A DNA stretch of 63,993 nt, the filler included, from Craspedostauros australis (lineage: Eukaryota): assembly GCA_030167865.1 (NCBI GenBank). It is 20 parts of 20 records of this genome, joined end to end, with 100 filler letters (N's around TTAATTAATTAA, not from the genome) between each part and the next. Parts side by side here need not be neighbours in the genome. Positions count along the whole stretch, not along the records: positions 62,400 to 63,993 come from JALAGF010001923.1; 19 more parts are not named here. One strand, 5' to 3'. Numbering within the stretch: position 1 is the stretch's first letter; each line of letters starts with the position of its first letter. The notes under the pieces are model-generated. The model was not told the DNA's origin, searched no databases, and was given only the letters and a program-made list of their open reading frames with translations. This document shows, piece by piece, positions 4,182-63,993 of the stretch. Both the position numbers and the translations under genes were made by a program.

Positions 4182-4834
4182 GTGCCCACCAAGCTTCATG
4201 CCCGTTCCATACATCAGCGTTGACCCAAGAAATTTCCATCAGATCGTGTGGGCCTGCTGCTTTTGCCTTGCCACCATCCACGACGTTCACGATGATGTTC
4301 TAAAGGTTACCTCTGCTGTCTAACCATTGCGGAGAGCAGTGACGACAGCGACACGCAGTATCAGCGAACATCAATCCACATCAATCTCCAATGATGGCAT
4401 GGCACCCAGTATTTGCTGATGAGACAGTCGGAGATCGTCTCGAACTGGAGGCATGCTTGCTGTTGTGAGCATACCGCGTGCTGTGTTGCTCCAACGCCGC
4501 AATGAATGAAGACCTTCCATGATCCTTCTACCGTGAACTTCGCTTATTGGTACGAGTGCAGTACCAATTGCTGCAATATTTTCTTCGTCGATTTTCTCGG
4601 CTGGGATAGGCGAAACGCGGTTCATTAAACGATGCTTTGTGCGACACCTTGAGTCGGAATCATACGCTCTCCCTTACTCTGCTTCACCCTACTTTGATGG
4701 CACACTCGAATGTCAAAGATGAAAACGTACCATCAATTAAATATAGAATAGAATGATGCACAGCTCGTCTGGAATATGAGTACTGCAAACCACATTGCCA
4801 ATTGCATGTATGCCGGCCTTGCCCAATAGATTCA

Positions 4835-25555: not shown

Positions 25556-26918
25556 GATGGCAGATGGCAGTCTCAAAGCTTGGATGAGTTCCTGCGATGC
25601 TCGTGCGTCCCTCAAAGTGATGGTCTGCTGTTGCTGAGTTGAACTGGATTGAATTGAGTTGGAGTGAAGAACGATCAAACGAAAGAAGATGAGATGCAGC
25701 AGTGAGATCTCCTCCATTCAAAGTCCAAATTGGCGCGCACCTCCATGGCAACAAGCAGCAACAACCGCGCACCCAGGTCACGTCGCCTCGCATCATCATC
25801 ATCATCGTCGTCAGCGGAGAGCTCACTCACCGATTGTGCTTGCGATGTGATCGAGATTGTGTGTGCTTCTGCATACGAGTATTGTTGTGCTGTGGCTCTC
25901 TGTTGCATGCACTGTACGCTGCTTCTGTGTGGTTCGTGCTGCGATTTCGACAACACTTTCGCAAGTGGAAGGCGCAAAGTCCGAGTTGCACCCAGCAAGA
26001 TACTTATTCCACACAATCGCTGTCCCGTAGATGCGTCTGCGTGGCACATGATCGTGGAACGATAGTATTTATGACCCAAGACCGACGCTGCCGATCCGCA
26101 GAGAAGCAGCAAGCAAGATCGGCAGCACAGTTTGTCCCTCGCCAATCATCTTGCCAAGATCCGTGGGATGCCCCTCTCTGCATTCCATTCACAGTGTGCA
26201 TCCGATCGAACAGCCACGCGATCCGCCCGACAAGATTCTTGTTCGCGCCATTTTGTGGGCGAAAGCAGCGAAAAGCGTTCTCTGGCTAATTTTGTCGAAG
26301 ACTCCCACCGATTCTTGGCGCCAAGCAACCTTCTCAAAACTCCCACCAGCGCCCGACCAATCAGAGCACCAAGAAAAGGGAACCGAACCCACGCCAATGT
26401 TGCGAGAAGCACCAAGAAGGAGGAGAGGAAAGCGGATGCAACGGATGCTTCATCCACTTCCAAGACCACAGCTGCAAGACAGCGATGGGAGTGTGAGACA
26501 GAACACGTGGCGCGTCCGAAATGAAACCGTCTTGGTTGTGGCGTCGGCAAGCGAGAGAATAGGTGTGCCGATGTGTGCCTTTGCGGTGTCTCCAGCGAGA
26601 GAGAATGACAGAGATGAATGAGTGTCTTGGGAGACTGATCCGGGTACAGGTATAATACATTCGCGGTGTCGCAAGTGACAACTGCAATTCCGTTAAGTAC
26701 TCCATTCGTTCTTCCGGCGGTGTGGCGCTTGTGTGAGAGGTATCAAGACCCTCAGCATCCGCAAAAGAGAAAGGAATTCAGAGCTGAATGATGGTGGAAG
26801 TGCTTGCAATCGACATGATGACAAATAGTCCAACAAGAAGAAATGAGAGCACGGAGAACGCCTGAAAATGTTGCGGTAGCGTTCAAATGAGCGCGGTTGT
26901 TTGTCGCAACAAAAAATA

Positions 26919-26990
26919 TTCTCCTGCCCGGATTCGAACCGAGGATGCTTGATTCAAAGTCAAGAGTGATAACCACTTCACTACAGGAGA
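26919..26990 (-). tRNA. tRNA-Gln (TTG)
   Basis: Full cloverleaf: acceptor TCTCCTG/CAGGAGA, anticodon arm CTTGA-CTTTGAA-TCAAG, T-arm GGTTCGAATCC; followed by a T6 Pol III terminator. Confidence 0.93.
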
Positions 26991-27805
26991 ATCAATTTGG
27001 GATATGTGGTGAAAATGAATACTAAATAATGTGTGTTGTGGAAGCGCAGAAAAATTGAGAGGCTATTCCTTGTTGTCAAGCGCAACTACTGGGTGGACAG
27101 GGGAGTCGAGGACCATATATTCCCAACTATTATTCCATAAATGACGCACAGTTCGCGTGCGAGCTGATGACTGTCCCATGATCTTGGTTGTCAGGGCAAC
27201 CTCGGCAGTGTTCGCTGGCCAGATTATGACGTGGGAGGAAGCTCTTGCCTCAAAGAGCCGGCTGTAACCAATTTTTTTGGTTACAGTTGGTTACAGTTGG
27301 TTACAAGAATAATGTCGTGTAGATCGTGGTACACGTTCTACGTAAGTCCCGAACAAAAAAGGCCAAAAACAGCATCAACCAAAGTTAAACTCTCCGGACT
27401 TAGCTCGTATGGACCATCCTGTACTCGTCTCTCTATAGTAGCATCATATGGCGTTTATATATACAAAACTAAAGTTTGGTGTCTGTTGCTCTCTTGCTCG
27501 GTGAGCACTGATGCCATTCATCAAGCACCCCCATCATTCACGGACGTTTTTGGCTTCTGATTGCCATGTTTTCTTATTCTGATTGGTCCAAAGAAGTGTT
27601 CCAACCATCGCTGACGTCACGATGACGCAGGTGTTGGAACCAGATTTCTCCAAACTTGCCACCGAAATTGGGGATCCGAGTGGTCAAATATCATTCCGAC
27701 CTCCANNNNNNNNNNNNNNNNNNNNNNNNNNNNNNNNNNNNNNNNNNNNTTAATTAATTAANNNNNNNNNNNNNNNNNNNNNNNNNNNNNNNNNNNNNNN
27801 NNNNN

Positions 27806-35616: not shown

Positions 35617-38600
35617 CAGACAACAAACAGGGGCGCCCGCCAATCCCAGTGCCATGCCAATGCAGTACAATGTCAACCAGACCACCGAGCAAGACGGATA
35701 CAACCAGGTTGGTGATGTACAGTCCTATGCCATTGAATCGTCCTCCAGTGATCACACCGACGAGACATATGATGTGTATGACACACATGACACAGATGAA
35801 CGGTTCTTTACTGGCATGGTACAGACTCACTACAGCCCCATCATGCTCATGCCAGTGACTGCACGACCACAAGATCCCCTGGCTACATCCACCAATGTAC
35901 ACATCCAGGCCAACGCTACAAACGTTGAAGAGCCAGCATACGCCATCTGTGACAGTGGTGCACAATGTTCCATTCTTGGCAGCCTTGGGGATGCATGGCA
36001 GGTGGAGATTGTACACCCACATCGATTCATCAACATCATTGGAGCCATCCCGTCATCGATGCGTAAGAATGGACTCCGCGTTGTGTCTGCTGTCACCAAG
36101 GCAACAACATCAAATGGGAAGAACATCATCCTCCGAGCACACGAGTGTGCACTGAATCCCCTGAGTCGGGTGACACTCTTGTCGGAGTTTCAGCTGAGGG
36201 AAGCCGGATGTGTGGTCGATTCGGTTGCAAAGGAACACTACAAGTCCATGCAACCTCGCCAACATGGGACACAGTTGTTCCATCCATCTGACGATGTGTG
36301 CATTGACCTTGTTCTCCACAATGCACTCATGACTTTCCAACTGTCATCTCCAACAGATGAAGACATTTCAACATTGCCATCATACACTATCACCAGAGAT
36401 ACACCATGGAAACCACGTCAACACACAGCACAACCGGACATTCACCAACCGTTTTCCGCATGCAACTCCATGACGAAATCCTGTCCCCACAAAGACCCTC
36501 CTGCCGACAACATTGTCCGTGACGGGTACACTCCCATCATGTCAGTGGATCACATCGACCTGCCGGACCATCCCAGACACATCAACATGAATGAGTTTGT
36601 TCCCACACATGATGACGTCGTGGTGATCGACAATGATATCCCTGTCACCCAACAGGATTTCTCTGTCCTCAAAGCATTGACCACTGTACCTGGGAAACTC
36701 TGGATGCAACAGTCTCCTCTGGTGGAACCAGACGATACCACTGTGCCCGTTGCCAACACACGCAAGACATTGACTGACGATGTGTCTGCCTACGATGACC
36801 TGTCTGATGCCCTGCGGCACCAACACCGTCAACGGCTGAACCAGACTGCTCCGGATGCTCAGAACATCCATGATGTGGGATTCCGAACCAAGGCAAAGCA
36901 TGTGATCGATGACCCGGCCAAGTTACAGCCCTATCTGGGATGGCGCAACATACGGATTATCCAAGAGACAGTCAAACGAACAACACAAAACTGCAAGGCT
37001 GTTATCCGTTGGCCGATGATTCGACACCTTCGCTCACGCTTTGCTTGGATGCGACGCCCTCGTCTCCGTGAGGTGGTGGCCACTGACACCTTCTTTTCCA
37101 ACGTCCCCTCCTATGGTGAAAACTACACGTGTGTCCAGGTTTTCTTTGGCACTTCTTCTCATGTCATAAATGTCATTGGCCTACGGTCCAAACAACAGGC
37201 CCACGATGCCATCAACTACTTCATTCGTGATGAAGGTGCACCCTGGGCGTTTCGGATGGACAACGCTGGCGAACAAACTGGGGAGAAGGTTGACGCCATC
37301 CTCCGTGAACTGCATATCGGCGTGGAGCTATCCGAGCCAGACTATCAGAATCAGAATCCCGCTGAACTCCGTGCCGTCAAGTGGCTGAAGACGAACGTGC
37401 ACGCCATCCTTGACCGTTCAGGGGCACCGCCACGTGCTTGGTTTCATGCAGCCAAGTATGCAGCGGATGTACACAACATCACCTCCGACCAATCACTCCG
37501 GTACAACATCCCCCTCACCATCCGTCATGGGGAAACTGTTGACATCTCACCCTTCCTTTGCTTTCGTTTCTTTGAGAAAGTTTACTATCACGATCCCACT
37601 GGCGCCTTCCCTGACCCCAAAGAGCGGACTGGATATTGGCTGGGTGTGGCTCCATCATGCGGGGATGCTCTGACGTACTTCGTACTCACGGATCACTCTC
37701 AACGTGTGCTTGTGCGGAGCGTCGTACGCCCCTTTCGCACCAATGCAACCAACCACCGCCTTTCCTTTCATCCCGAGCTCGATCCTGGTCGACACCACTC
37801 ACCACCGCCATTGCCGCTCGTTCTTGGCGCACAACGCATGCCTACCAGCCGTCGCCTTCTCCAATACCGCAAGCCTGCCCGTGTTCCTCAAGACCGGCCT
37901 CCTCCTTCCCGTCTGCCCCTTGGTGAGCCTCGTTCCGGTCCAGTCCTTCCGCAGTCTTCCCCGGCTTCGACCTCGCGGCCATCACCGGCGAAAGGGGGGG
38001 TTCCTGCTTTTCCTTCGACTCTTTCTGTTCCACGCAGACCCAACGCAGCACGCTCTCCTCGGGGAACTCAACGACGAACATCCCAACGCATCCAGAATCG
38101 TGGAGACCCAACACCATGGAAGACCAGAATGACCCGGACGCAGGTCAAAGCGATTACACTGGCGGCAACACAGTACGACCAGCCTGTACAAATTGGGCCA
38201 GACACCTTCCTTGGCGTGTCACAGAAGCAAGGGGCAGGCATTCGTCATGGCAATCGCTTCTACCCCGTTGACACAACACCTTCACATGCCACGATGCTCC
38301 GTGATGCACAACCTCGTCGCATCCGTGCTGGACTGAACGACACCGAAATGGCCCAACTAAACCTTGTGACAGCCCTCGATGCCATCGCCGCAACAACGAG
38401 CGACACCGGTGACACAAGCATGAACAACACAATCCAGTCAGTTGTGACGCATCGACATCCTGACATGGTACGTGTGAAGTGGCGCGACAACAGCCAGTCA
38501 TGGCATCATGTGGATGAAGTCCGACTCCAGGACCCATATGCACTTGTCCAATACGCACTGTCATGGGGACTGGAGCATACCACACCTTTCCAGTGGATCC

Positions 38601-40033
38601 CACGATTCCAAATGGACACAGTCTTGGTACAAGCAGCCAGCAAACCATCCGCAAAACCCAAGAATCGATACAAATTTGGTGTGCTTGTTCCCAACAATGT
38701 CCGACACGCCCTCTACCTTGATCGAATGAATGGCGACCATCAATGGAAGGAAGCAATTGACAAGGAGCTTTGCCAAATCAATGAATACAAGACATTCCGC
38801 TTACCCCGCGAGGACGATGACTTGACGACGTACCAGCACATCCCGTACCACATCATTTTTGACGTCAAGTTTGACCTACGGCGCAAGGCCCGCCTTGTTG
38901 CGAACGGCAACATGTCAGACCCTACCATCGAGGATGTCTACTCAGGGGTTGTTGCCTTCGAAACCATGCGGATTGCATTCGTCATTGCAGCCATGAACAA
39001 TCTTCAGGTATGTGCTGGTGATGTGGGAAACGCCTTCTTGTATGCACAGACAAAGGAGCGCTGCTATGTCACTGCTGGCCCAGAATTCGGGAACCTTGCT
39101 GGACGACCCCTCATCATTCACAAGGGTCTGTATGGTCTGCGAACGTCAAGTGCACGTTTTCATGAACATTTGGCGCAGTCTTTCCGCGACCTCGGATTCC
39201 GCCCCACCCAGTACGACACCGACCTTTGGATCCGACCCAAAGACGATCACTACGAAATGATTGCGTCGTATGTGGATGACGTGTTGGTGTTCAGCAAAGA
39301 GCCCATGGAGATCATGAATGTACTCAAGTCCAAGTATGTCATGAAGGGGGTTGGCACTCCCATGTACTATCTGGGTGGTGATATCGAACAGCTTGACGAA
39401 CCATGGCAGAAGGAAGGGATTTTCACCGCATTATCCGCTCGCACCTACATTGGGAGCGCATGTGAGAAGATTGAAGCATTGCTTCAACGATCACTTCCAA
39501 CGCATCAAACACCGATGGCAGAGCAATACCATGCAGAGTTGGATGACACCGACATGCTGGACAAAGGGGCGGCAAGCAAGTTCCGAACCATGGTCGGGTG
39601 TGCCAACTGGATCATCACATTGGGTCGGTATGACGTCCAGTTTGCGACCATGTCCCTCTCTCGGTTCTCGATGGCCCCACGTCAAGGCCACCTCAAGGCC
39701 ATGATCCGTGTGTTCGGCTACCTGAAATCACACCGAAATGGACGACTACTCTGCGATCCCACACCACCAGATCACCCCATGCAACCACAAACGGATGATG
39801 AGAAATGGATGGAGTACTACCCACAAGCAGAAGAAGCAACACCACACAACATGCCACCACCCAAAGGGAAACCTGCATACATCACAGTATACGTCGATGC
39901 TGACCATGCACATGATGTTGTAACCCGACGTTCTGTCACTGGCATCGTCGCCAAAATCAATGGGATGGTTGTCCGTTCCTTCAGCAAGCGACAAAACACA
40001 GTCGAGTCATCAACATATGGTGCTGAACTCGTT
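35617..40033 (+). mobile_element. Ty1/Copia (CoDi-type) pol: protease, integrase, chromo-like domain, RT, RNase H
   Basis: CDSGAQ; ATDTFFS..MDNAGEQ..QNPAE; FDVKFDLRRKARLVA; DVGNAFL; YVDD; YVDADHAHD..TRRSVTG. The PR-INT-RT-RH order is Copia-type; ORF intact for about 1470 codons. Confidence 0.95.
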
Positions 40034-54965: not shown

Positions 54966-55567
54966 ACAACCTCAAACCGATCGTCACCGACAAGCTCGTG
55001 CCTGTGCAGAAGCAGGTGCAACCGCTGCACATGTGCGCGCACTTTCGTCTGGGGAACGGCGAGACAGGCAACTGGGAAGGCAGAAAATGGCGCCACGTCA
55101 ACAATAAAGATGCCATGATGGGAATGGTGTTGGAGGAGATGATCAAGTTCTCAAAGGACAAGGCGAACAGCGAGAAGACGGAGGGCGGCGTCAGCCTTTT
55201 CGTTGCTGGTGACGATCCCAACATCCAAGGCTGGTTCCAGAACAACGTGCCAACGGGATGGAAGGTCATCATGCCCGAGGTGGATACATCTGAGACGGCG
55301 AAGCGGTTGCCAGAATCAGGCGTTTGGTTCGGAGATTCCAAGAGCAACACGAGTGCTATCCTCACGCCGGACGAGAAAAACGACAAGATGGCCGAAGCGA
55401 TGGCGGACATGATCCTCCTGGGACAATGCGACGGTCTGTTTGCCCCGACGTACTCCTCCTTCATCATTTTGCCCATCATGATGAGCTACATCCGCGACGC
55501 GGCCATCTTTATTCGCAATCGCGAGGAGTTCGAACCATTCCGTGATGATCCGTTCAAGAAGCCGTAA
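54966..55567 (+). CDS. Fucosyltransferase-like (NodZ/GT23/GT11-type GT-B fold), 3' part
   Basis: HFRLGNGE (HxRxG), FVAGDD, DMILLGQCD..YSSF. Confidence 0.75.
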
Positions 55568-56894: not shown

Positions 56895-58042
56895 GATGTA
56901 TCCACCTCGGGCATGATGACCTTCCATCCCGTTGGCACGTTGTTCTGGAACCAGCCTTGGATGTTGGGATCGTCACCAGCAACGAAAAGGCTGACGCCGC
57001 CCTCCGTCTTCTCGCTGTTCGCCTTGTCCTTTGAGAACTTGATCATCTCCTCCAACACCATTCCCATCATGGCATCTTTATTGTTGACGTGGCGCCATTT
57101 TCTGCCTTCCCAGTTGCCTGTCTCGCCGTTCCCCAGACGAAAGTGCGCGCACATGTGCAGCGGTTGCACCTGCTTCTGCACAGGCACGAGCTTGTCGGTG
57201 ACGATCGGTTTGAGGTTGTTCATCATGTGCTGCAGCACTGTTCCGGATTCCAGATTCGTCATGAGGATCCGCTGAGACAACTCAAACGAGCTATACACGC
57301 TAGATAGGTCGCCTCTGCCCGCCGGGAAGTTGTGAGTGCGCTCGACGCCATCGAAGTTCCAGGGGAGACCGTTGACGAAGTTCTCTTGCGGTCTGGGTTT
57401 TGTGTTGATGCGCCGTCTCAGTGCTCTCTCGCACTGGACGTACGGGGTCTCCTCAAAGAATGCACTCCATGGCGTGTCGCCCCAGTACACGATTGCTCGA
57501 CGTTGATGACGCAGAGCGTACGCCAATCCCGGTATCGTCCGGGACAGGCGATGTCCCAGACCGCAGCAGCCGCCCGTGCCGACTTGCTTCAAGGGTTCAG
57601 TGAAGTCCNNNNNNNNNNNNNNNNNNNNNNNNNNNNNNNNNNNNNNAGGAATCTTCGGGTTGCCGGTGAGGAGGACGCCGCCCAGCTTCGCTCTGCGGCT
57701 GAATTGGGGTGCCTTTTTCGCCACAGCAGCTGTGGCCTTGGGCGTGGTCGCGGTTGTGGTTCCATCGACGCAAGGACGAAGGCCAGAGGACTGGGCGATC
57801 TCCTTGAGCAAGGCGAGGGTTTCATCGATCTTTGCCATGTCAGCGGGGTCGATCTTGACGGGCTGCGGCTCCGTGACTGGCAGGTCCTGCGGTGTTGGCA
57901 GCAGCTGCGGCGACGCGAAGGAGGTGGTCATCGTAACCAAGAAAGATGAGAGCATGCTCAGCAATCCCAGTGTCACCATGACGATCATGAGGATGGATCC
58001 TCTGCCATGGTTTCGGATTCGGCGATCAACTTGTGCAAACAT
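56895..58042 (-). CDS. Same fucosyltransferase-like gene, 5' part (type II Golgi-like topology)
   Basis: Short tail, TM, Pro/Thr stem, GCCGLGHR and HFRLGNGE. 56895-57219 is the reverse complement of 54966-55290. Confidence 0.75.
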
Positions 58043-58952: not shown

Positions 58953-60043
58953 CCGCTGTGTCCAACGACACTGAGCCCAAAGGCTCCAAGCCTCTCAGGA
59001 CCAACGATCCTGACTAGCAATCTATGAAGTTAGCCCAAAGGCAACTCATCAAATCAAGCCCTTGCTAAGCAAGCGCACCCACCAACACCTGCAAAACCAG
59101 GTGTACGTCTCAAGAGCACCCCTGCCAAGACCTCCGTGCACACCTTCGCCACCGAAGGGAGGAAGAGCAGCAAGGCCTGAGACAACCGTCGACACCAAGC
59201 GAAGCCCAACGACTTCGACACCTCCGCCGCCTCACCATGAGCGTCCAAGGAGAAGACACGAGCATCAGCAGCGAAGAACGCAGGCTGGAGGCCTTCGTGG
59301 AGCGGCTTAACCAACAAGCCGCTCAAGCCCTTCGAGACCTCAACGAATCCCGAATCTCGCGAGGAGCTACACTCATCCCTGCTCAGCAAAGAGACCAAAC
59401 GGCAGCCGGGCAAGGAGAGGGCGAAACCGCCCAAGACAACGATGGAGATGCCAACGACCAACCGAACCCTGGTGAAACCGAGGGAACCGCAAGACGCGGA
59501 GGGAACGTAGGCAACCCAACCGAATCCACCGGGGGTGACTTCCCTTTTGCCGCCGACAAGGACCCCATCGGACCCGAGACCACGTACGTGGCGTACGAAA
59601 GCGAAGACAAGCCAGAGAAACCCATCATGGGCGGCCTCACCAAGGCTGGTCGTCACTGGGTACCATGGACGGGAGGGAAACCGAACGTCGAATGGACGGG
59701 CCTTGCGGAAGACGCAGCCACGTCCTACGACAGCTCCCAACAACAGCGCGTCCTCCACAACGGCTCGGACTCCAAGAACCAACCGGAGCGAGAGAAGGGC
59801 ATCCGCCCACGCTTCCGAATCGGGGACNNNNNNNNNNNNNNNNNNNNNAACCGCCAGCGCATGCTGCGCCTCCTCAAGGACCACATGTCCACAGCAGGTC
59901 TCATCTCGATGACCTACATGAGGAGCAACGAACACCCCGATGAGATGGTGTGTGTCCTCGACGCCCCAGGCAGCACCACCATCAGCCAAGCCACTGACCA
60001 CCATGACCTCTATCGCCACTTGTGGGATCGATACGACAAGCAG
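58953..60043 (+). mobile_element. Probable Copia 5' leader and gag N-terminus (ORF from 59237)
   Basis: PIMGG..WTGGKP..WTGL motif recalled from diatom Copia Gag proteins; intronless; isolated short contig. Confidence 0.55.
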
Positions 60044-60143: not shown

Positions 60144-60508
60144 CAATTCGACCTGATATACTTCCCAACTAAACCTGAAATGACAACACACTCGACGACC
60201 TCAAGCATCATCAATGGAATGTGGAATTGAGAGAGCCATGGAACGGTGATGAGTGACGTCGACACAGAAGACATCATCGCCACATCATGGGTCATCTCCA
60301 CATCAGAACAAGATCGCAGAGGTGCAATGACTGAGAGCTGACCTTGAAGACAGCAACATGAGATACAACTCAATGAAGATAACATAGAACTTGAAGTCAC
60401 TCAACCCAAACAGTGTCTTCACTCACCAGCTTGTCACCCTTGTCCTGAAAGACTTGATCTCTCTTGAAGGACTCGTGTGATCTCGCTGTGTACAATACCG
60501 AGTTAACA
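60144..60508 (+). repeat. LTR (3' or solo copy, 5' part missing)
   Basis: 365 bp apparently identical to 62400-62764, ending ..GAGTTAACA; the flanks diverge immediately afterwards. Confidence 0.9.
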
Positions 60509-60525
60509 GCTCTCTTGCTCAATAT

Positions 60526-60923
60526 TGTGTGTTTGTATTACATGATATTCTGTACTCAATATGTGCTCTGTATTTGATACATACTCCATTGTCTCATTCT
60601 CTACTGGCCCACTTCTCTGCAAGCAACCACCAATGTCTTGTCCAAATTCCTCCTTGTATATCCACAATCTTGATGTTGCTCAGTCATCGAATCTTTGCCT
60701 TCTTGATCTGATGTGGAGACAGATGTCAATGTGGTGACATGATGACATGCTGTTGACATCTGCTGTCACCTTCCATGGTCCTTCAGATTCCATATTCCAT
60801 TGATGATGAAGTGGTCTGGCAAGGATATTGTTGTTTGAGGTTTAGTTGGGAAGTACATTGAGCCTCGCTCGATGCCATATGTTTCAGTTGGTTGATGGAC
60901 GGACAGGATTCCTGATGCTCTCA
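60526..60923 (-). repeat. Diverged related LTR in inverted orientation (boundaries approximate)
   Basis: The reverse complement of about 60680-60857 aligns to about 60155-60335 (TACTTCCCAACTAAACCT, CATCATCAATGGAAT, CCATGGAA, TCTCCACATCAGA, ATGACTGAG). Confidence 0.7.
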
Positions 60924-61645: not shown

Positions 61646-62299
61646 CACACTTTGTGACATCAGCCTGTCTCGAGTACTCTCTTTTCATTGGTTGCAACAT
61701 GGGGGCCGTAGTCGCGTGTATCGTGATGTTGGTCACAATTCCAACATCCCTGCCCCCTGCAACATACACGTGTGATTCGCATTCCTGCATTGAGGTCACG
61801 GACACCATAGTCCGGTTCACATTCGGCACGTGGCATTCTCCACCACAAGACGCGTGCAGCTCACATTTTCTGTCACAAAGATCCACGGGTGGGGGTTGCG
61901 GTAATGTATCATTTTATGACATTCGACTCCGTACTCTTGAGAGGTGCGGCAATTCGGTGTGTCAGGAATCGGGTGTTCTGAAACACCATATTGCCGCACC
62001 TCCCAAGAGTAAGGAGCCGAACGTCGGGATATTCTACATTACCGCAACTCCCACGTTTGATCATTGTGACACAGAAAAATGTGAGCTGCACGTAACTCGC
62101 GGTGGAGAACGACACGTGCCGAATGCGAACCATGCCCTGACGTTCATGACTCCAATGCAGGAATGCGAATCACACGCGTATGTCGCAGGGGGCAGGGATG
62201 TTGAAATCGTGACCGACATCACGATACGAGCGACTACGGCCCCCATGTCGCAACCAATGAGAAAAGAGTACTGGAGGAAGGCCAACATCACGAAGTGTG
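61646..62299. repeat. Long imperfect palindrome / foldback element, centre about 61972, right arm cut by contig end
   Basis: The arms pair continuously from a loop of about 8 nt out to the contig edge. Confidence 0.9.
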
Positions 62300-62399: not shown

Positions 62400-63993
62400 C
62401 AATTCGACCTGATATACTTCCCAACTAAACCTGAAATGACAACACACTCGACGACCTCAAGCATCATCAATGGAATGTGGAATTGAGAGAGCCATGGAAC
62501 GGTGATGAGTGACGTCGACACAGAAGACATCATCGCCACATCATGGGTCATCTCCACATCAGAACAAGATCGCAGAGGTGCAATGACTGAGAGCTGACCT
62601 TGAAGACAGCAACATGAGATACAACTCAATGAAGATAACATAGAACTTGAAGTCACTCAACCCAAACAGTGTCTTCACTCACCAGCTTGTCACCCTTGTC
62701 CTGAAAGACTTGATCTCTCTTGAAGGACTCGTGTGATCTCGCTGTGTACAATACCGAGTTAACAGATTAACAGTCGCAAGCACTACGTCCTGACCTGACT
62801 GAGTGAAAACGCCTCCAACCCACCGAGCTGATCCCATCAGCAACGAACCAACTGCATCACATGACGACGTGAAGCAGGAACCGAACAACAAGAGCCTTCC
62901 AAGGCAGTGCACCCGAACACACCGAGCACAGCGTATCCGCTTCTCCGTGACGAACCGAACAAGATGACAGAACCCACCGACCCCATCACCGTACTGAACC
63001 ACGTCCTCAAGGCTGTGGGTATCTCCGACGACTCCGACCATCGCCGCGTTATCATCGACGCAGCGGTGGAGAACGTTGACGACCTCACCTTCCTCACCAA
63101 GGAAGACCTCGACGGTCTTCATCGCGACATCACTCCCACCACGGGAGACCCATACTCATGCCGATTGACTGCATTGTACATTCGCAAGATCCTCGCACTC
63201 CCAATGTGGTATGACGCGCAAGCTGGCGACGACGACTCCGTCTGGCTTGGCCTGAATGCTGCGAGGCTCCAGAGCTTCATGAGAACCAAACTCAAGAAGC
63301 GCATGGATGCCTCCATGCCGACACCCGAACCCACCATGTCATCCATGGTGGCACCACCACCACCACCACCTGCACCTGTCTCTGACGAGGCCGCTGCCTT
63401 CGACAAGGGCATCAAGCGGAACCTCAGCGACTATCCGATCCTGAAGAGCGATGACCAGTTCATGATCTTCGACCGATGTCTCCGAGCCACCGCTGCAGCG
63501 CACGGTGTGAAGAACGTCGTAGACCCCGAGTACCTCCCGACCCAAGACGAGTCTGAGCTGTTCGACAAACAACTCACCTTCCTCTTCTACGTCTTGACCC
63601 ACTGCCTCAGGACCACGAAGAGCCGCAACTGTCTCCAGGCATACGCCGATGACGAGAACGGTCATGGGGTGTATACCATGCTCCGTGAGGAGTACACGAC
63701 CGGAGTAGCTGCAGCCAACAAGGCCCAGCTGATCCAAGAGGAGATCCGGAACCTCAAGCTGAACCACTCCTGGAACAGCAGCCGCGAAGCCTTCGTGAAC
63801 AGCTGGCTCAGCAAGATCAACAACCTCGAGGAGATCCAGGATGCACCTGTCTCTGAGGACTGGAAGCTCCAGTGGCTCAAGGAGGCCATCACCCCTGATG
63901 CCGATCTCTTCCGTTCCCTTGATGACGCCGATACTCTCCAGAGCAACTTGGCGTTGGCAACAGGAAAGACTGACTTCAGGCTGGACTTCGATG
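62400..63993 (+). mobile_element. Copia (CoDi-type) 5' end: LTR 62400-62764, PBS 62765-62778, gag from ATG 62964 running off the window
   Basis: The LTR is duplicated at 60144. An open frame absent from the ORF track (no stop in window) reads MTEPTDP..FDKGIKRNLSDYPILKSD..AHGVKNVVDPEY..LKLNHSW. Confidence 0.9.

Follow-up and report, generated by a model that had tools for sequence, protein, structure and literature searches.

The priming question at the LTR junction

Which RNA primes minus-strand synthesis in a retrotransposon whose long terminal repeat (LTR) is not followed by TGG? The question is raised by an element at the end of the window, the 63,993-nt stretch of DNA analyzed here, which is not one continuous stretch but a set of about 24 small contigs separated by linkers of the form N44-TTAATTAATTAA-N44. 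The sequence behind the LTR of this element contains no TGG. Instead, the 14-mer GATTAACAGTCGCA (62765..62778, plus strand) directly adjoins the LTR end, and the junction reads ...ACCGAGTTAACA|GATTAACAGTCGCAAGCACTACG. In our view this 14-mer is likely to be a minus-strand primer-binding site (PBS) whose partner is cytosolic tRNA-Asn(GUU), paired through positions 27–40 of its anticodon stem-loop.

The element belongs to a Copia-type family

Two features follow the candidate PBS on the plus strand: a 5′ leader (62779..62963) and a gag-like open reading frame (62964..63993) that starts 185 nt beyond the PBS. The reading frame has 343 visible residues and runs, still open, past the end of the window. 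No Pfam family matched the gag-like product or 12 long gag-PR-IN homologs, and word-based protein searches with the gag-like sequence returned no homolog. An exhaustive HMMER search with it did return homologs: 1101 passed E<=0.001, and the top one had an E-value of 7.9e-43. Long homologs of ~1100 aa (P0002, P0007 and P0015) run from gag through a DxGANGG protease to an integrase-like region, which has 39% identity with the same part of an RVT_2 polyprotein encoded elsewhere in the window (35618-40033). All four full-length metagenome relatives that were scanned carry RVT_2 at about residues 1330–1675, C-terminal to gag-PR-IN. Because the homologs lead to a protease and an integrase and the full-length relatives to RVT_2, the family is of the Copia type. 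By homology, the element is therefore Copia-type as well (gag-PR-IN-RT), with the window copy ending within gag.

Relatives for comparison came from a single scan of metagenomes, in which a profile built on the long homologs detected 79 loci with a total of 455,747 nt. Viral contigs scanned with a 19-mer, with gag and with the polyprotein profile contained no relative of the element. The nearest Atlas cluster with assigned taxa is mostly Bacillariophyta. Elsewhere the window encodes DUF6824 and HSF proteins. On these two grounds, a host of the diatom type is likely.

LTR copies and the LTR/internal boundary

The LTR is represented by two copies on different contigs. The visible 3′ part of the 5′ LTR of the element (copy B, 62400..62764, plus strand) ends in ...GAGTTAACA, and a second copy, either a solo or a 3′ LTR (copy A, 60144..60508, plus strand), is followed by a G and then by non-element sequence. 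The two are identical over 366 nt (60144-60509 and 62400-62765) and first differ at 60510/62766. Beyond the shared part, copy A continues as CTCTCTTGC... and copy B as ATTAACAGTCGCAAGCAC.... Both contigs open at the same base within the repeat, so the 5′ end of the LTR lies outside either contig; the 3′ terminus is CA. No insertion is complete within the window. A diverged, inverted relic of a related LTR (60510..60870, minus strand) adjoins copy A tail-to-tail. Its inverted arms (I3–I5) are 82–87% complementary, and its reverse complement aligns to the LTR.

Since G62765 is common to both copies, its assignment to the LTR or to the internal region is ambiguous from the window alone. The related locus L048 has both LTR ends. 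Its LTR closes with ...CTGTTA; behind the 5′ copy stands GATTAACAGTC, behind the 3′ copy TCAAG. The LTR of L048 thus ends at the A, and the G is counted as part of the internal region. We fixed the 3′ end of the window LTR at 62764 from the divergence between copies A and B together with this analogy. The preliminary description of the locus had placed the LTR end at TTAACA on the strength of the second copy, with no TGG behind it. The absence of TGG holds, whereas the stretch shared by the two copies proved one base longer, extending through G62765.

The LTR ends of the relatives have a conserved T-rich/TNNCA pattern. In L040 the LTR runs TGACA...TGTCA; L040 and L058 both open with TGACA and close with TGTCA right before the motif, the 3′ copy of L040 being truncated. 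Compared with the termini of L040, the TTAACA-type ends look like ordinary ends of a terminal inverted repeat. What seemed to be a gap between LTR and motif in L076 is a contig end inside the 3′ copy. Paired LTR ends show the adjacency of LTR and PBS in two cases only, the window element (within 1 nt) and L048.

The site is complementary to the anticodon arm of tRNA-Asn(GUU)

The complement of the PBS core is GACUGUUAAUC, or GA-CUGUUAA-UC, which includes U33, GUU as the anticodon, A37 and, closing the stem, two base pairs (GA/UC). If the anticodon is numbered 34–36, as is standard for tRNAs, the complement of the whole 14-mer covers positions 27–40 and takes in the 5′ side of the anticodon stem, the loop of 7 nt and two nucleotides at the start of the 3′ side. 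The same 11-mer is printed for Escherichia coli tRNA-Asn in the appendix of PMC13363220. Viral contigs were scanned for the 11-mer followed by a T-loop motif, which gave at least 118 loci; at least 106 of these are tRNA-Asn genes according to ARAGORN, and at least three (L100, L186 and L195) contain the full 14-mer of the window. The agreement with E. coli and viral genes is the reason why we read the motif as a signature of the tRNA-Asn(GUU) arm. By this comparison, in which the tRNAs are bacterial and viral and not from a diatom, it is a specific one. The tRNA-Asn(GUU) stem-loop proposed from the window alone is therefore borne out by known arms. Yeast tRNA-Asn presumably also matches the complement of the window 14-mer.

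tRNA genes closer to the element offer no direct comparison: the window holds a tRNA-Gln gene alone and no tRNA-Asn gene, and the 79 related loci contain no tRNA gene. Literature string searches with tRNA-Asn arm sequences returned E. coli tRNA-Asn and unrelated primers only.

The likeness to tRNA-Asn would be coincidental if the site served another primer, whether a small RNA other than a tRNA or, in Tf1-type self-priming, the transcript of the element itself. The motif-bearing tRNA-Asn genes are those of E. coli and of viral contigs and none is the host's own, and both contigs lack the 5′ portion of the LTR, in which transcription might begin. Self-priming is moreover common in some Copia lineages, such as plant TAR, and is predicted for 12% of plant elements (PMC6317226). 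Against this, the complement shows all the hallmarks of an anticodon loop closed by two base pairs and is identical to known tRNA-Asn arms. The 366 nt of LTR that are visible contain no stretch of 7 nt or more complementary to 62765-62790, and Tf1-type self-priming from this part was rejected on that ground, the unseen 5′ part of the LTR being a small gap in the comparison.

Judged from window statistics alone, the 14-mer is no more than chance would provide. It is the sole match to its own sequence in the window even at up to two mismatches, and 26 of 100 shuffles yield at least one match at this level. The heptamer TTAACAG is also present twice, 8 nt apart. These observations favor, respectively, a coincidental match and a local repeat of the LTR end in tandem, and the weight of this explanation is best judged from the relatives.

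The putative PBS core is conserved among unalignable element families

The 11-mer GATTAACAGTC occurs 32 times in 31 of the 79 loci, always on the coding strand and never on the opposite one, as against 0.11 occurrences per strand expected by chance. It lies upstream of gag in every locus where both can be placed. The preceding base is A at all 32 sites (CA in 18, TA in 13, GA in 1), and this invariant A has the look of an LTR terminus. When the window is included there are 33 sites; the 150 nt upstream of them sort into 28 clusters that cannot be aligned with one another, and the 150 nt downstream into 29. With flanks that cannot be aligned and a core that is shared, the motif has been kept where its surroundings have diverged. 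The preliminary description had proposed a PBS-like element abutting the LTR and had allowed that the motif might not recur among copies; the site adjoins the LTR end that two identical copies in the window define, and its core is retained across at least 28 unalignable families.

These comparisons settle the question of chance and duplication. LTR ends of the TTAACA type are found in only 3 of the 28 cluster representatives (the window, L003 and L022), and the remaining 25 have TGTCA, ATTA, CTCA or other ends in front of the same core. The suggestion that the site is just a local duplication of the LTR end fails on this point. Strand-specific conservation, unalignable flanks and varied LTR ends together refute both a chance match and a tandem duplication, and we assign this explanation a negligible probability. 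L028 belongs to the same family as L022. The same data bear on priming by another RNA: a self-complementary site would not need an 11-mer that is invariant over 28 families with unalignable LTRs, and we regard a primer other than tRNA-Asn as improbable.

A FastTree tree of the polyproteins was built from the 37 of the 79 loci that have an open reading frame of at least 1100 aa, and 24 of these 37 carry the core. Core-bearing elements stand on both sides of the deepest split, and the end branches have a median length of 0.53 changes per site. The PBS motif appears to belong to the whole of a deep clade of diatom-type Copia elements and to be no quirk of the window copy.

The extent of the conserved block was analyzed with one representative per cluster (28 rows; L028, L058, L066 and L076 were left out). 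PBS position 12 is unconstrained. Position 13 has C in 21 representatives and T in 6, and position 14 has A in 19 and G in 9. At position 15 and beyond, the information is at most about 0.4 bit. This drop delimits a constrained block of 14 nt, which is, on the alignment of representatives, the exact span of tRNA positions 27–40. A possible 4-nt extension of the PBS, AGCA (62779..62782, plus strand), is also present in the unrelated family L075, so that the window and L075 share 18 nt counted from the G; positions 15–18 have an information of ~0.1–0.4 bit, and the extension is not conserved across the clade.

Loci without the exact core

The exact core is absent from 48 of the 79 loci. Most of these end before the site, and several others have less than 400 nt upstream. 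L023 and L024, for example, open just past the site, as a comparison with L006 indicates, and L051 is the same element as L048 minus the long leader. Variants of the core with one or two changes or an indel are present in L006, L011, L027/L030, L068 and L038. The L006 variant is GATTAACAGCTC, and that of L011 has an extra A. L038 has GATTAACCAGCC in an apparently intact tandem element, a variant that is incompatible with a normal 7-nt anticodon loop. No clear core was found in L025, which has 1,217 nt upstream of the open reading frame, or in L002, where the interval between the pol and gag parts is present.

The conserved block might be a cis-signal of another kind, acting in integrase end recognition, packaging or dimerization, with priming taking place elsewhere. 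There is a precedent in fungal GalEa Copia elements, which have a conserved non-tRNA hairpin at the PBS position (PMC5445492), and the LTR ends of this clade have the conserved T-rich/TNNCA pattern. Against a cis-signal, no alternative PBS was found, nor a TGG after the LTR. Shared 10-mers and complements of the Lys and iMet anticodon loops were sought upstream of gag in the core-less loci, and none was recurrent. The local RNA fold is unremarkable as well, with a z of -0.55 that leaves the 5′ leader without a significant fold; a special RNA structure at the leader was rejected on this value. The same motif has, furthermore, been read as a tRNA-Asn PBS in fungi (PMC10886601). We regard a cis-signal without a role in priming as very improbable.

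Proposed priming by a 5′ half of tRNA-Asn

If the site is a tRNA-Asn PBS, the primer would pair by its anticodon stem-loop and not by its 3′ end. The paired positions 27–40 of tRNA-Asn(GTT) would read TGCGACTGTTAATC. With no base between the site and the LTR end, the 3′-OH used for priming would have to be that of nucleotide C40. The tRNA would then have to be severed on the 3′ side of the anticodon stem, between nucleotides 40 and 41, and this cut might be made before or after annealing. Reverse transcriptase would then extend the ~40-nt 5′ fragment into U5 to give strong-stop DNA, as it does in copia and Ty5 with initiator tRNA. We infer from the complement that the host has a tRNA-Asn with an exactly matching stem and, by analogy with these elements, that a cleaved tRNA-Asn fragment exists and primes. 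The clade would thereby offer a testable case in which the origin and use of an internal tRNA cut could be studied. The idea that anticodon-arm primers are t6A37 tRNAs throughout was rejected, since the primers in Kojima 2024 include tRNA-Tyr and tRNA-Asp (PMC10886601).

Comparison with known primer systems

The proposed mechanism has well-described counterparts. Drosophila copia and yeast Ty5 are also members of the Copia superfamily, and they share with the window element a PBS that abuts the LTR, pairing with an anticodon arm and priming from an internal cut; a review of Ty3 speaks of a ‘half-tRNA’ for copia and of internal cleavage for Ty5 (PMC5371799). Their primer is initiator tRNA-Met, whereas that of the window element would be tRNA-Asn, the adjacency of LTR and site implying a cut after position 40. 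The copia primer is cut after position 39.

Half-molecule PBSs occur in ~2% of plant elements according to Neumann 2019 (PMC6317226), which gives half tRNA-Met for Osser, Bryco and part of Gymco-II and half tRNA-Ile for Bianca. In Bianca and in Osser/Bryco/Gymco-II, the half-tRNA PBS is a lineage-wide trait, as it is in the window clade, and Bianca provides a precedent for a primer other than the initiator tRNA (PMC6317226). These plant lineages use other tRNA species and belong to another kingdom of hosts than the window element. Among fungal Copia elements, FunCo1 has the PBS ATTAAGAGTCT, described by Donnart 2017 as complementary to an internal region of tRNA-Lys (PMC5445492). Its architecture (ATTAA-NNG-TC) is nearly identical to that of the window core, from which it differs only at the positions complementary to the anticodon. 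The FunCo1 primer is tRNA-Lys and its hosts are ascomycetes, in contrast to the tRNA-Asn of the window element.

The closest counterpart is found in rust fungi. Kojima 2024 describes priming by the anticodon loop of tRNA-Asn-GTT in Helenus TRIMs and their Copia partners (PMC10886601), and the internal regions in its supplement start with cGATTAACAGTCGAA (Helenus-3_PGr-I) and caATTAACAGTCGAA (LTR-2_PSt-I). Helenus thus uses the same tRNA species and the same region of it, with a core equal to that of the window element except at stem positions. The preliminary description had presented an Asn half-primer as a distinct and perhaps unreported priming system; that part of the proposal does not stand, since practically the same motif is on record in Helenus (PMC10886601). 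An Asn anticodon-arm PBS is already in print with nearly the same motif, and the window element, as read here, adds no new priming principle.

The two groups differ in other respects. The hosts of Helenus are fungi of the order Pucciniales, whereas the window clade comes from a diatom-type host and aquatic metagenomes. Helenus elements are non-autonomous TRIMs in which the Asn type arose once, while the window clade is a deep group of autonomous Copia elements in which the Asn type is near-invariant. The fungal consensus also has one or two extra bases between the LTR and the motif, and its likeness to the window element rests on the PBS motif (all from PMC10886601 on the Helenus side).

The CoDi groups of diatoms resemble the window element in their Copia-type polyprotein and in a host that is likely of the diatom type (PMC2806351). 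The main text of Maumus 2009 (PMC2806351) contains no ‘tRNA’, uses ‘PBS’ for a buffer only and describes no primer site for CoDi elements. A search of titles and abstracts on primer sites and tRNAs of diatom LTR retrotransposons, with figures and some supplements outside its range, gave no relevant description. On the present reading, priming by the tRNA-Asn anticodon arm extends beyond the TRIMs of rust fungi and would be the fixed state of a deep and abundant Copia clade, with members in one genome of the diatom type and in many metagenomes from water and soil. For annotation, the motif provides a precise landmark of 11–14 nt at the LTR/internal boundary of these elements, one that standard PBS finders would miss as they seek tRNA 3′ ends.

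Variation at the distal end of the site

The last three positions of the block differ among elements in a way that parallels the tRNA. Positions 27–29 vary widely among the viral-contig tRNA-Asn genes listed, like PBS positions 12–14, and the part that is variable among the tRNAs is, in these two sets, the part that is variable among the PBSs. On the element tree, the classes defined by positions 12–14 are scattered, with 13 changes over 24 labelled rows; the GCA class alone takes six changes for six rows. This scatter is in keeping with a PBS set anew by the tRNA of each host, as opposed to one passed on by descent.

A more specific proposal is that positions 12–14 are rewritten from the host tRNA-Asn at plus-strand synthesis and that the 40/41 cut couples retrotransposition to regulated cleavage of the anticodon arm. 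We consider this unlikely at present. If it held, the PBS would be a built-in host tag by which environmental Copia elements could be assigned to host lineages, and regulated cleavage of the anticodon arm might act on retrotransposition, for example under nutrient or stress conditions. tRNA-Asn is a queuosine-34/t6A-37 tRNA, and these modifications may matter for cleavage of this kind. As an anecdotal observation, the ACA extension is common to L005 and L067, distant lineages that come from the same assembly.

Organization of the window

The window (positions 1–63993) chains about 24 small contigs through N44-TTAATTAATTAA-N44 linkers, and features that are adjacent in it may therefore be apart in the genome. 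The two contigs that bear LTR copies, copy A (60144–60508, plus strand) and copy B (62400–62764, plus strand), start at the identical base of the repeat, and this shared start looks like an assembly break. By eye, the contig starts at 54966–55300 and 56895–57230, the latter on the next-but-one contig, are mutual reverse complements over a few hundred bases; the pair may represent a single gene, carried on contigs that overlap or on haplotigs.

A diverged remnant of a related LTR (60510–60870, minus strand) lies in inverted orientation directly against copy A, so that the two meet tail-to-tail; three inverted arms show 82–87% complementarity. Together, copy A and the relic may constitute a nested or rearranged insertion. 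A large inverted repeat at 61646–62299 is composed of two 224-nt arms (61646–61869 and 62076–62299; 83%) that enclose an inner pair of 77-nt arms. The structure is foldback-like.

Other genes in the window

An open frame of 1472 aa (35618–40033, plus strand) fills its contig and matches RVT_2 (E = 2.5e-21). The N-terminal part of this polyprotein is unrelated to the gag-like ORF that starts at 62964, and the polyprotein belongs to a different Copia element. The contig preceding copy A contains an ORF beginning MSVQGEDTS (59237–60043, plus strand), for which a Pfam search returned no significant family; it may be part of another mobile element. The sole tRNA gene found in the window encodes tRNA-Gln(TTG) (26918–26991, minus strand).

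Related elements in metagenomes

Many contigs among the 79 metagenome loci with related Copia-type polyproteins (L001–L079) are terminally redundant or tandem, with the order pol 3′ end, LTR, primer-binding site (PBS) and gag. Assembly that runs through LTRs would be expected to give this form, as would tandem arrays in which one LTR is shared. In several of these relatives (L048, L001, L003, L021 and L019), gag starts approximately 1.0–1.4 kb beyond the PBS, compared with 185 nt in the window, and these long leaders might contain an extra ORF or a structured RNA. The PBS itself varies in L038, an apparently intact tandem element that carries GATTAACCAGCCGCA at the PBS position (4220–4240), following a sequence that ends in CAATA. 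The L038 variant does not conform to a 7-nt anticodon loop.
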